Virus record (IMG/VR): IMGVR_UViG_2778261094_000002
Span: 1-5,911 of that record
Direction: 5' to 3' (one strand)
From: a virus
Lineage: Duplodnaviria; Heunggongvirae; Uroviricota; Caudoviricetes
DNA: 5,911 nt
The position numbers were made by a program, and so were the translations under genes. Positions 2,521 through 5,896 of the stretch are shown piece after piece (positions within the stretch are counted from its first letter, which is position 1; each line of letters opens with the position of its first letter). The notes beneath the pieces were generated by a model. That model ran no database searches. It saw only the letters and a program-made list of their open reading frames with translations, and had not been told where the DNA came from.

Positions 2521-3049
2521 TATCGCGTCCTCAACAATGAATTTTGTGATGCGGCGCCTGGTGCCTCCAGGTGACGTTAACCAGTAAACCATTAACGCCG
2601 GATTGTTAGTTGATGTCTGTTACGCAAGTAAAAGACCGCTTGTTTTAACTGTTCCGCGTGCGCTGAGCCGCATTCACCGCATCACAAAATTCACTTTAAA
2701 AGGGGCGGGTATCACGGGAAAAACAAAACGAATACCCGCCAAAAGGTAATCAACATGGGTTGTTGTAGCGGAGTTGTCACTCAGGCGTATGGTCAACCTG
2801 ACAACCCGGTGTCCTCAACGGGGAAGGAATAACCCCGCCATACTTACCGCCGCGCCATTTCGCGGAGTGCCACAACCGGAAGCGCACGGTCGACGAAAAT
2901 TTAACGACAGGCTATCTATGAACCAGCAACCTCGCCGTGCGCTTTCGCGTTATGCTCTGACTTTTCAGAGAAATATCCTTTCAGTAAACTGTCAGTGCCG
3001 GATGTTCACCCGTGGAGAACTCCTTAATTACCAACCCTCAGGAGGGTGA

Positions 3050-3283
3050 ATGTTAAAATCAACTCTTATTGCTAAATGCCTTTATCAAAATCGCATGGTA
3101 AGCAGCATTTCAATAGGCGAGTCTGCAGTTAAAAGTATTTTCGAAGAGTACTTTTCCGGGCATGATTTTAATAAATGGAATACCAAATTACCGCCAGCAG
3201 TTTCAACGCGTATTCTGAAAGCAACTGAAAGAGCAAGTACAATTCGCGTTAACTATTTCATTAAAGATTTGTGGGATCTTTGA
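3050..3283 (+). CDS. Hypothetical 77-aa protein, AT-rich, lysine-rich; transcribed opposite to the leftward operon
   Basis: ATG at 3050 preceded by AGGAGGG (3040-3046). Translation MLKSTLIAKCLYQNRMVSSISIGESAVKSIFEEYFSGHDFNKWNTKLPPAVSTRILKATERASTIRVNYFIKDLWDL, stop TGA at 3281-3283. Codon usage is AT-biased relative to the flanking genes. No recognisable family. Confidence 0.5.
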   Translation: MLKSTLIAKCLYQNRMVSSISIGESAVKSIFEEYFSGHDFNKWNTKLPPAVSTRILKATERASTIRVNYFIKDLWDL

Positions 3284-3668
3284 TATCCACAGAGCCTAAA
3301 GTATGTGCATATGGATGTGCTATTGTGCGCCCTCGCAGATTTGCATCATTTTCTAAATTCACTGAACGAAACAGGGCATCAACAAGGCTCTGTACAATGC
3401 AAAGGCAATCGAAGACTGTCGCCGTTTCTGTTTTGATTGATGAAAGAACATGGCCATTCACGCAAACAGAAATTACCCGTTTATTAACATCGCTTTCCTG
3501 CTTTTGATTATCAGAACCATATAGCCCAGAAAAAGCATTGCGCACATTACGAACCATATTATCGATGGTTTCTTTTTTGGTGTATGCCGGGTCAATTTTC
3601 ACCAGACTATCACCGAGAGTCGTTGCAGCAATTGTCTGGATTTCTTTTGGTAAATCTTTAAATTCCAT
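3261..3668 (-). CDS. Hypothetical 135-aa protein
   Basis: ATG at 3668..3666 with GAGG 6 nt upstream; stop TAA at 3263..3261. Translation MEFKDLPKEIQTIAATTLGDSLVKIDPAYTKKETIDNMVRNVRNAFSGLYGSDNQKQESDVNKRVISVCVNGHVLSSIKTETATVFDCLCIVQSLVDALFRSVNLENDANLRGRTIAHPYAHTLGSVDIKDPTNL has protein-like composition and no predicted TM segment. No family recognised. Its 3' end overlaps the plus-strand 77-aa ORF by 23 bp. Confidence 0.6.
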   Translation of the reverse strand: MEFKDLPKEIQTIAATTLGDSLVKIDPAYTKKETIDNMVRNVRNAFSGLYGSDNQKQESDVNKRVISVCVNGHVLSSIKTETATVFDCLCIVQSLVDALFRSVNLENDANLRGRTIAHPYAHTLGSVDIKDPTNL

Positions 3669-4068: not shown

Positions 4069-4305
4069 TCACCCACCTGAATCTCTTTCCAGCCAGCGAC
4101 GCGCTCCAGATTCGGTTTTAAACGTTTTGCTTTTGGTATACGTCATTGCGGTGAACGTGCCGTCCTGGTTTGGAAACACGCCGTACACCAGAGATTCGTT
4201 GTTGCCAAGATCGATAGTATCCATGCTGACCTCATTCCCCCTTAACGCCGGGGTAGCGGAACAAAAACCTGCTGCATAGTTATTAAAGTTGAACCCTGCC
4301 GTCAT
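4069..4305 (-). CDS. Hypothetical small protein, first gene of the leftward operon; 78 aa from ATG 4305, or 51 aa from the internal ATG at 4224
   Basis: Both candidate starts have a GAGG 5-9 nt upstream. Translation MTAGFNFNNYAAGFCSATPALRGNEVSMDTIDLGNNESLVYGVFPNQDGTFTAMTYTKSKTFKTESGARRWLERDSGG, stop TGA at 4071..4069. Confidence 0.5.
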   Translation of the reverse strand: MTAGFNFNNYAAGFCSATPALRGNEVSMDTIDLGNNESLVYGVFPNQDGTFTAMTYTKSKTFKTESGARRWLERDSGG

Positions 4306-4401
4306 GTTCTTACGCCTCGGGCTGGCTACTTAACCCCTGACCACTGCCGGGTAACTCGAAGTATTGCCCTGCGTTCTGTGGGGCGGGGTGGGTATGTTGT
4401 T

Positions 4402-4430
4402 ATGGTAACAAGAGTTACCATTGAAGTCAA
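4402..4430 (-). promoter_or_regulatory. PL-like leftward early promoter with embedded operator palindrome (OL)
   Basis: Minus-strand reading: TTGACT (4430..4425), 17-bp spacer, TGT-TACCAT extended -10 (4410..4402). The perfect palindrome GGTAAC-aaga-GTTACC (4404-4419) lies between -35 and -10. Further GTAAC/GTTAC-like half-sites occur at 4351-4355 and 4437-4441. Confidence 0.4.
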
Positions 4431-4462
4431 TATGATGTTACAAAAGGTACGCTTAGGGGTGT

Positions 4463-4487
4463 AAAAAACCCGCAATGAATGCGGGTT
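4463..4487 (-). terminator. Rho-independent terminator of the repressor gene
   Basis: Minus-strand reading, 5 nt after the repressor TAA stop: AACCCGCA-TTCAT-TGCGGGTT followed by TTTT (GC-rich 8-bp stem at 4467-4474 / 4480-4487, 5-nt loop, six consecutive T including the stem end). Confidence 0.65.
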
Positions 4488-4492
4488 CTGAC

Positions 4493-5167
4493 TTAGTCTA
4501 AGTATTGATGTATTTGTGAAACTTTACCTTTAATAGTGTAACCGACATTCAGTTCAATGGGTTTGTAAAGCGGGTTCAGTGACAACAGATAGATGTTTGG
4601 TCCGTCAATCGCAACTTTTTTTAGTGTTACGTTTGGCGTACCCTCCAATTGGATTAAGATTATTTTTCCCACCAGTTCTCTAATGTTACTTGAGCATGGT
4701 GTGATCAGCACGGTAGATCCGTCTGGGATTGTTGGGAGGCCGTTAGAGTTCGTCATCGAATCTCCCTCAACGTGCAATAAAAAAGAGTTTTCAGCGGTTT
4801 TTGTCATGACATCAACCCAATTCTTAATACCAGGAATCTCGGTTACTGGGCAACTCATATCCCAATAACCAGCCTGTTCCCACGTTAAAACGGGCAACCG
4901 GGCGATGTTGTCACTAATGTAAAGGTACTGATTCAGACGCAGATCATCGGCTTTATCGTGATCGTCCTTTCCATAAAGAATCCATTCAGGAGATTTTGAA
5001 AGCAATTTTGACAGCAGATGCAAATTCTCACCGTCAGGTTTTGAAGAGCCATTTTCCCATTTTGTTACGGATACACGAGTTATGCCGATTGCTTTTGCAA
5101 CCTGCTCTTGGGTTAGTCCAACGTCTTTTCGACGATTCCGAATACGTTCGCTGATAGTGTTTTTCAT
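4493..5167 (-). CDS. CI/LexA-like prophage repressor: N-terminal XRE-type HTH plus C-terminal S24 peptidase (autocleavage) domain, 224 aa
   Basis: HTH segment LTQEQVAKAIGITRVSVTKWENG. S24 catalytic motifs GDSM (Ser) and TLKK (Lys). Candidate Ala-Gly cleavage site in the linker (EQAGYW). Stop TAA at 4495..4493. I chose the start at ATG 5167 (MKNTISERIRNRRK...) because the HTH then begins about 17 residues in and 91 bp of intergenic space remains for operators. ATG 5209 (14 residues longer) overlaps a consensus TTGACA. The track's start at 5416 is a TTG that would overlap the divergent cro-like gene. Confidence 0.8.
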   Translation of the reverse strand: MKNTISERIRNRRKDVGLTQEQVAKAIGITRVSVTKWENGSSKPDGENLHLLSKLLSKSPEWILYGKDDHDKADDLRLNQYLYISDNIARLPVLTWEQAGYWDMSCPVTEIPGIKNWVDVMTKTAENSFLLHVEGDSMTNSNGLPTIPDGSTVLITPCSSNIRELVGKIILIQLEGTPNVTLKKVAIDGPNIYLLSLNPLYKPIELNVGYTIKGKVSQIHQYLD

Positions 5168-5202
5168 GTAATCAATGTTACTACCAAGTAATGTCACTAT
5201 GG

Positions 5203-5232
5203 TTGACATTGCGATGTAACTATTGTTACCCT
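5203..5232 (+). promoter_or_regulatory. PR-like rightward early promoter with embedded operator (OR)
   Basis: TTGACA (5203-5208), 18-bp spacer, TGT-TACCCT extended -10 (5224-5232). Inverted repeat GTAAC-tatt-GTTAC (5216-5229) overlaps the -10. Architecture mirrors the PL-like element on the other side of the repressor gene. Additional half-site-like repeats at 5177-5197. Confidence 0.4.
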
Positions 5233-5258
5233 CATGTTCGAAATAACAGGAGAGTTTT

Positions 5259-5474
5259 ATGTTCAAAGATGATGTTCTGCGCCATTTCAAAAAAAAGCGA
5301 CTAGTAGCTGAGGCTCTTGGGATTTCACATGTGGCTGTTGTGCGGTGGAAAGCTGTTATTCCCAAACTTCGCGCAATGGAGCTGGATGAAATTACTAACG
5401 GTGAATTGAAATACAACCCAGAGCTTTACAAGAGGCAGGATAGCACCTCGAACGAAGGAAAGAATGATTCATGA
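5259..5474 (+). CDS. Cro/YdaS-like small HTH regulator, 71 aa, divergent from the repressor
   Basis: ATG 5259 preceded by AGGAGAG (5248-5254). Translation MFKDDVLRHFKKKRLVAEALGISHVAVVRWKAVIPKLRAMELDEITNGELKYNPELYKRQDSTSNEGKNDS shows the Cro/YdaS-type pattern (G-I-S...A-V..W....IP......E.IT.G). Stop TGA 5472-5474 overlaps the next ATG. Confidence 0.7.
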   Translation: MFKDDVLRHFKKKRLVAEALGISHVAVVRWKAVIPKLRAMELDEITNGELKYNPELYKRQDSTSNEGKNDS

Positions 5475-5896
5475 AAATCAAGCATGAGCACATCCGCATG
5501 GCGATGAATGCCTGGGCGCATCCGGACGGCGAAAAAGTACCGACTGCGAAGATTACCAAAGCGTATTTCGAACTGGGTATGACGTTCCCGGAACTGTACG
5601 ACGACAGCCATCCGGAAGCCCTGTCTCGTAATACCCAGAAAATTTTCCGCTGGGTAGAAAAAGACACCCCTGATGCGGTTAAAAAAATTCAGGCGTTGTT
5701 ACCGGCGATCGAAAAAGCAATGCCGCCTCCGCTGGTGGCCCGAATGCGCAGCCACAGTTCGGAATATCACCGGGAGCTTGTCGAGCGACGGGAGCGCCTG
5801 GTGAAAGATATCGATGAGTTTGTTGCGGCAGCGATCGTGTTGTTCGATCAGATGAATCGTGGTGGTCCGGCGGGAAATGCCGTGGTGGCGCATTGA
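5471..5896 (+). CDS. ydaT: YdaT-family protein (Rac prophage YdaT-like; occupies the cII-like position after cro), 141 aa
   Basis: ATG 5471 in an ATGA overlap with the cro-like stop. Translation MKIKHEHIRMAMNAWAHPDGEKVPTAKITKAYFELGMTFPELYDDSHPEALSRNTQKIFRWVEKD... matches my recollection of Rac YdaT in length (about 140 aa) and sequence flavour. Stop TGA 5894-5896. Confidence 0.7.
   Translation: MKIKHEHIRMAMNAWAHPDGEKVPTAKITKAYFELGMTFPELYDDSHPEALSRNTQKIFRWVEKDTPDAVKKIQALLPAIEKAMPPPLVARMRSHSSEYHRELVERRERLVKDIDEFVAAAIVLFDQMNRGGPAGNAVVAH
5731..5738 (+). other. Chi octamer GCTGGTGG
   Basis: Exact match on the plus strand inside the ydaT-like gene, same orientation as the site at 141-148. Confidence 0.5.

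Follow-up and report, generated by a model that had tools for sequence, protein, structure and literature searches.

The GTAAC-N4-GTTAC palindromes on the two sides of the repressor gene are very probably the sites through which a cI-like repressor and Cro control the early promoters of this Escherichia coli prophage. The recognition sequence and the OL/PL and OR/PR assignments proposed in the first-pass annotation held up in four independent tests made at the level of sequence (footprinting, register, co-variation and positional homology). That first description of the operator/promoter array was incomplete, not wrong: it lacked OR3, OR2, OL2 and the repressor's own promoter. The full set supported by our comparisons comprises OL1 and OL2, OR1, OR2 and OR3, PL and PR, a probable leaderless PRM, and a predicted terminator at 4463-4487 (Table 1). 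We hold with good confidence that the switch is of the ordinary P22/lambda-type kind, with a specificity of its own that sets it outside the P22 and CP-933P immunity groups.

Prophage context and gene content

The window, by which we mean the whole stretch of DNA analysed (5,911 nt, or 5.9 kb), is 100% identical to a prophage integrated beside yccA in E. coli FDAARGOS_1077, and represents the early region of a lambdoid prophage of the Qin/Rac-like type. Positions 4396-5474 in all likelihood make up the immunity module of this lambdoid E. coli element, in which the repressor gene and cro are divergent and separated by a gap of 91 bp. In the leftward operon, DicF is absent between ydfC and dicB (window 2593-3668), unlike in Qin, and an Rfam search gave no match at gathering thresholds. 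The same region includes a noncoding stretch of about 450 bp with an STnc100-like match at 2543-2691 on the minus strand, which is sub-threshold at 29.9 bits (gathering score 47).

The repressor matched lambda cI (3bdn, E = 2e-14; C-terminal domain related), P22 c2 and the 434 repressor in the PDB, and A99, G100, S137, K183 and K184 (Ala-Gly site, Ser and Lys) were invariant in the repressor alignment. At the junction of cro and the ydaT-family gene, the sequence ATGATT-catgaa-AATCAA (5464-5481) spans the cro stop and the ydaT start and has one mismatch to TTGATT-N6-AATCAA, the OM site footprinted for CP-933P YdaT at the position equivalent to window 5464-5481 (PMC9986795). This YdaT-box-like sequence is a candidate site for a PRE-type establishment promoter.

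The immunity segment (4300-5480) was nearly full-length in 702 of the 5,426 complete E. coli genomes, with ~95-100% identity among the matches listed. No phage repressor in the phage collection searched was more than 43% identical to that of the window, and a one-genome-per-species scan with repressor peptide patterns returned generic HTH matches in unrelated bacteria only. At this frequency the immunity type is common yet uncharacterised, and we found no description of its operators. Prior descriptions of the motif, of ZF40 operators or of dicB-type prophage operators were likewise not found in the literature, which is weak evidence of novelty given incomplete coverage.

Predicted operators and promoters around the repressor gene

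We compared the locus with relatives ordered by repressor identity: the AZ146 allele (95%, L002), three loci at 88% (L017, L019 and L020), two from Salmonella at 70% (L021 and L022), one at 65% (L023), and phages AH07, ZF40 and ST101-KPC2phi6.3 (ST101) at 41-43%. Exact GTAAC-N4-GTTAC occurs in the window in two copies only, at 4405-4418 and 5216-5229, both of which had been reported (the former as GGTAAC-aaga-GTTACC, 4404-4419). The shuffle expectation for this motif was 0.01, and two copies were reached in 0 of 200 shuffles. A search of 25 kb of prophage and flank gave no exact copies beyond these two. The left palindrome proved longer than first described, reading ATGGTAAC-aaga-GTTACCAT over 20 bp (4402-4421) with 8-bp arms. 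GTWAC pentamers are also enriched: the window has 18 where 7.9 are expected (0 of 200 shuffles), and five lie inside the repressor gene (4538, 4626, 4685, 4842 and 5064).

Table 1. Genes and predicted regulatory elements of the window, in window positions.
Feature	Position	Strand	Details
Leftward genes, left to right: exonuclease, ydfD (DUF1482), dicB, two small ORFs, ydfC, ydfB, ydfA (DUF1391)		- (except one small ORF)	
ORFs between dicB and ydfC	3050-3283; 3261-3668	+; -	No annotated function
PL leader	4300-4395	-	Start of predicted PL transcript, outside immunity module; contains GTAAC 4351-4355
PL extended -10, TGT-TACCAT	4402-4410 (hexamer 4402-4407)	-	TACCAT or TACCTT in relatives
OL1, GTAAC-aaga-GTTAC	4405-4418	.	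Perfect; core of 20-bp palindrome; occupies PL spacer and -10
PL -35, TTGACT	4425-4430	-	Plus-strand GTCAA kept in most relatives; ATCAA or GGTCAA in two
OL2 (weak), GTTAC-aaaa-GGTAC	4437-4450	.	Two mismatches; reverse complement GTACC-tttt-GTAAC
Intrinsic terminator of repressor gene	4463-4487	-	Read from sequence; 8-bp stem 4467-4474/4480-4487, 5-nt loop, U-run
Repressor gene	4493-5167	-	224 aa; N-terminal HTH_3 (E = 2e-16), C-terminal Peptidase_S24 (E = 1e-17), LexA/cI-type
OR3, GTAAT-caat-GTTAC	5168-5181	.	One mismatch; abuts repressor ATG; overlaps putative PRM -10
Putative PRM -10, TAACAT	5175-5180	-	Predicted from sequence; ends 7 nt before ATG
OR2 (weak), GTCAC-tatg-GTTGA (GTCACtatgGTTGA)	5193-5206	.	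Three mismatches; right half is PR -35
PR -35, TTGACA	5203-5208	+	GGTTGACA invariant in 8 E. coli and Salmonella loci
OR1, GTAAC-tatt-GTTAC	5216-5229	.	Perfect; in PR spacer and -10; ATGTAACTATTGTTACC invariant in 8 loci, to 65% repressor identity
PR extended -10, TGT-TACCCT	5224-5232 (hexamer 5227-5232)	+	TACCTT in relatives; predicted start ~5239-5241
cro	5259-5474	+	P22_Cro family (Pfam E = 3e-16); Shine-Dalgarno AGGAG 5248-5252
ydaT-family gene	5471-5896	+	Pfam; functional equivalent of cII

Outward-facing promoter-like modules lie on both sides of the repressor gene, as had been claimed. In the PL module (4430-4402, minus strand), 17 nt separate TTGACT from TACCAT, and in the PR module (5203-5232, plus strand), 18 nt separate TTGACA from TACCCT; TACCAT and TACCCT both follow a TG. 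At both promoters the palindrome is located between -35 and -10 and supplies the TG of the extended -10. The spacers of 17 and 18 nt given in the earlier description are correct for the hexamers TACCAT and TACCCT, whereas the literal gaps to TGTTACC.. measure 14 and 15 nt. A simple promoter scan called PL only, not PR or PRM, and the PR -10 matches TATAAT at just 3 of 6 positions.

The additional half-sites listed in the first-pass annotation are mostly parts of larger sites. The GTTAC at 5177-5181 belongs to a full one-mismatch site (5168-5181, perfect in the 95% allele), and the half-site at 4437-4441 to the weak full site at 4437-4450. Within 5188-5197, the right-hand pentamer (5193-5197) forms the left half of the weak OR2, whereas 5188-5192 is not conserved. 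The GTAAC at 4351-4355 falls in DNA common to ~3,700 E. coli genomes with other immunity types; it lies within a leader shared across these types and is therefore not specific to this repressor.

On the left side, four elements line up in an alignment with eight relatives: OL1, the -35 (as GTCAA), a second site at a distance of 32-35 bp, and the repressor terminator. The OL1 position is conserved in these eight as GTAAC or GTACC-N4-GTTAC, GTACC being a recurrent half-site variant among relatives. In the 95% allele (L002 3107-3126, against window 4402-4421), the outer flanks of OL1 change symmetrically from ATGG...CCAT to AAGG...CCTT, with the 20-bp palindrome kept despite the flank change and the PL -10 becoming TACCTT. 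This could be a coincidence, or it could reflect selection on positions beyond the 14-bp core. OL2, which starts 32 bp from OL1 and upstream of the PL -35, is the weakest assignment: all aligned relatives retain its OL1-distal half as G(G/T)TAC, and the degenerate half varies even among close ones. The site in L023 is perfect, and good ones occur in AH07 and ST101, at +34 and +35. The terminator element (AAAAAACCCGC...GCGGG) is present in all relatives and is predicted to separate the repressor transcript from OL/PL; 4463-4487 was not listed by a simple terminator scan of the window. In the Salmonella relative (70%), no OL-like site or E. coli-type terminator was found within ~250 bp downstream of the repressor (L021 2217-2470; L022 1329-1580). 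The left arm is replaced there, and the repressor is followed by a co-directional 204-aa gene of no known function.

The immunity module is bounded on its left by the predicted PL start at 4395, an A when read on the minus strand, which follows the TACCAT hexamer by 7 nt. Rac and CP-933P have their junction at this position too. About 3,700 of the 5,426 E. coli genomes match window 4300-4393 only, and in these the leader of ~95 nt is 93-99% conserved next to unrelated immunity modules. It adjoins racR in K-12 Rac and paaR2-paaA2-parE2 in EDL933 CP-933P, and the window, Rac and CP-933P stay collinear as far as GGTAT (window 4395), past which they are unrelated. The leader was also located in L029 (1501-1598) and L030 (1501-1597). 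In CP-933P, the PL933P promoter of this region has been cloned and is repressed ~100-fold by PaaR2 or by YdaS (PMC8630535). We also considered the PL leader (4300-4396, minus strand) as a structured antitermination RNA and rejected this, its predicted fold being no better than that of shuffles (z = 0.19).

On the right side, the repressor-cro gap of eight E. coli and Salmonella loci contains four near-invariant blocks with scrambled segments between them: CAT+GTAA(C/T)nnn(T/G)GTTAC, GGTTGACA, ATGTAACTATTGTTACC(C/T)T, and the Shine-Dalgarno sequence. OR3 is free of mismatches in the relatives at 95%, 88% and 65%, as it is in the phages AH07, ZF40 and ST101. A clear middle site (GTAACttttGTTTG) is present in AH07 and ST101 in the same register, on which basis OR2 of the window was placed at 5193-5206; its left half varies among close relatives. 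An OR2 at 5184-5197 (32 bp from OR1, mirroring OL) was tried and rejected, as that position has no conserved half-site and the OR2 of relatives lies 23 bp from OR1.

For PRM, a TANNNT hexamer is found at the -10 position in all relatives, and no recognisable or conserved -35 hexamer was seen at the expected position. No Shine-Dalgarno sequence precedes 5167. Lambda cI is a precedent for a leaderless repressor mRNA. By analogy with it and with paaR2, we think it rather likely that the repressor mRNA of the window is leaderless or nearly so, with its -10 inside OR3. The paaR2 start of CP-933P was mapped by 5' RACE and N-terminal sequencing, and its mRNA is leaderless (PMC8630535). If the mRNA of the window is leaderless, OR2 would span about -26 to -39 and so cover the -35 position of PRM, a geometry that does not support lambda-style activation from OR2.

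Register, specificity and alternative readings

Across nine relatives with 95-41% repressor identity, the same sites recur in the same register while flanking bases drift. In the 95, 88, 70 and 65% relatives, the sites, -35 and -10 are invariant or nearly so, and the spacers between them diverge. The register CAT-14-11-14-9-14 (ATG, OR3, 11 bp, OR2, 9 bp, OR1) is identical in 11 loci, including AH07, ZF40 and ST101-KPC2phi6.3. Phage vB_EcoM-689R6 (38% identity, helix SDVAVGYWE) departs from this register, so the blueprint is not universal.

The half-site changes with the proteins predicted to read it. Among the aligned GTAAC-type repressors the recognition helix is identical or nearly so, SRV(S/T)(V/I)TKWE, that of the window being SRVSVTKWE (also given as TRVSVTKW). 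The window Cro helix is ..SHVAVVRWK, of which ..AV(V/C)RW is shared within the GTAAC group, and it differs in mEp390 and P22. In mEp390 and vB_EcoM-720R4, the repressor helix is NRVTVTGWE and the sites, in the same register, are GTAGG-N4-CCTAC; the mEp390 Cro helix reads ..SGWG. P22 combines the helix SNVAISQWE with TTAAG-N4-CTTAA cores. Such parallel change of the half-site and of both DNA-binding proteins is what palindromes read by repressor and Cro should show, and it argues against conservation by promoter function alone. The operators of mEp390 and 720R4, which have the Stx2c-phage type of repressor, lie at L026 1128-1195 and L032 about 496-600, and the annotated 720R4 repressor start (MNMSD...) is probably two codons too long.

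Tentatively, an enterobacterial clade may share a rigid blueprint (ATG, 14-bp OR3, 11 bp, 14-bp OR2, 9 bp, 14-bp OR1), within which a few residues of helix 3 might set specificity: before the conserved Trp, Lys in the repressor and Arg in Cro would specify GTAAC, Gly in both GTAGG, and Gln in both TTAAG. As part of the same tentative proposal, the position of PR would be shifted from that in P22 by about one operator, and regulation of the repressor's own promoter may then be negative only. If few-residue specificity is true, immunity groups and operators could be read from sequence for hundreds of uncharacterised prophages.

Could the palindromes instead be conserved mainly as promoter parts (TG-extended -10 and spacer), with the true operators elsewhere or of another sequence? 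The promoter-proximal half-site does supply the TG and TA of the -10 at PL and PR, and the -35 and -10 show the same invariance as the palindromes do. However, the promoter-distal GTAAC half is equally invariant without having a promoter role, and the palindrome recurs outside the PL and PR spacers, at OR3 and, in L023, AH07 and ST101, at OL2/OR2. Moreover, the switch to GTAGG/CCTAC coincides exactly with altered recognition helices in both repressor and Cro, and we consider promoter function an extremely unlikely sole account. The probability that the repeats arose by chance, or as a compositional feature of an A/T-rich intergenic region, is close to nil: although GTWAC pentamers are common across the window (18 copies, five of them in the repressor gene), none of the 200 shuffles held two exact 14-bp sites, and both position and sequence are conserved across genera.

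A reading in which only OL1 and OR1 are functional depends on the repressor start. Here the start at 5209 would be correct, 5168-5181 and 5193-5206 would be coding, and the repressor would be transcribed from inside or beyond cro (PRE-type only), for which the YdaT-box at 5464-5481 could serve a PRE-like promoter. The NCBI pipeline PGAP does place the start at 5209, 42 nt upstream of 5167 (238 aa), and, with other gene callers, predicts proteins of 238-240 aa whose 14-residue extension puts OR3 and OR2 in coding sequence. However, Met at 5167 is invariant and is the start used by most homologues (~219 aa), including P22 c2, and the symmetry and register of OR3 are kept in phages whose callers choose the shorter Met. 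Between two E. coli alleles, 3 of the 4 differences in 5168-5209 fall at second codon positions of the PGAP frame, and the conserved 'NIGYM' of the extension is translated operator DNA. The 5209 start is thus probably wrong, with the 14-residue extension representing translated operator and -35 DNA, and many 238-240 aa database homologues probably carry the same start artefact. Overall, we regard a switch limited to OL1 and OR1 as very unlikely.

With the palindromes read as repressor and Cro sites, a cI/c2-type repressor dimer would bind the 14-bp cores GTA(A/C)C-N4-GTTAC in a 434/P22-like geometry, that is, through two contacted 5-bp half-sites around a 4-bp A/T-rich centre. PL would drive ydfA-ydfB-ydfC...dicB and the exonuclease gene, and repressor on OL1 and OR1 (with OR2) would occlude RNA polymerase, giving a silent prophage. 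OR3, overlapping the putative weak promoter of the repressor gene, would make the repressor negatively autoregulated and would be where Cro acts to stop its synthesis, and RecA-stimulated self-cleavage at the conserved Ala-Gly site would lead to prophage induction. Binding, transcription starts, occupancy order, cooperativity and the leaderless start are the parts of this switch that we infer. The operator map nonetheless offers a testable account of the silencing of dicB, the exonuclease gene and the lytic genes, and the operator sequence predicts which prophages are homo-immune and corrects the annotated repressor start. It adds nothing conceptual beyond the lambda/P22 paradigm.

Comparison with known systems

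The immC switch of Salmonella phage P22 is the nearest characterised system to that of the window. P22 c2 is 36% identical to the window repressor and has the same HTH + S24 architecture, and both Cro proteins belong to the P22_Cro family. As in P22, OR3 lies next to the repressor ATG, the centre-to-centre operator spacing is 25 and 23 bp, OL1 is in the PL spacer/-10, and OL2 is ~33 bp away beyond the -35. In P22 operators, repressor contacts fall on the outer bases, and the 4 bp at the centre are free of them (PMC4267663). Unlike P22, which has a TTAAG half-site, ATTTAAG-N4-CTTAAAT operators and the helix SNVAISQWE, the window has a GTAAC half-site and a different helix; with these differences and 36% repressor identity, membership of the P22 immunity group was rejected. 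Measured against the operator array, PR of the window is also displaced ~18 bp to the right: OR1 is in its spacer and OR2 on its -35, whereas the P22 spacer contains OR2, and OR1 of P22 covers the -10 and +1. Through this shift, PR of the window copies the PL layout, which is the mirror architecture first noticed. A third OL site, such as P22 OL3, was not identified in the window.

CP-933P of E. coli O157:H7 resembles the window as a prophage of the Rac/Qin-like class; both have a cII equivalent of the YdaT family, and in both a YdaT-box lies where cro meets ydaT. Its PL -35 and -10 elements resemble those of PR, as in the window, and the same conserved PL leader starts from the same junction. 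PL, PR and PRM of CP-933P have been shown to be regulated (PMC8630535, PMC9986795). In contrast to the window repressor, PaaR2 is a small protein without an S24 domain, a toxin-antitoxin pair follows it, and the CP-933P operators follow the consensus GTTTAGTAA in four repeats. PaaR2-type immunity was rejected for the window because repressor family and operators differ; what the two have in common is limited to the YdaT-type gene and the leader on the left side of 4395.

The leftward operon ydfA, ydfB, ydfC, dicB and ydfD under a divergent repressor/cro-like pair is a feature in common with the Qin DicA/DicC system of E. coli K-12. DicA is a P22 c2-like repressor. Unlike the Qin system, the window has a different operator sequence, no DicF was detected in it, and its repressor has a full S24 cleavage domain and should therefore be SOS-inducible.

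Similarities to lambda include divergent cI/cro genes, a tripartite OR, operators overlapping PL and PR, and a repressor mRNA that is probably leaderless. However, the operator cores are 14 bp instead of the 17 bp of lambda, and the HTH is of another subtype. OR2 would overlap the PRM -35, which OR2 of lambda abuts, an N gene is absent, and just ~0.8 kb separates OL from OR. As far as sequence can tell, the window has what defines a lambdoid switch of the P22 type, namely divergent genes, a repressor with HTH and S24 domains, three OR sites (OR2 degenerate) and OL at PL.
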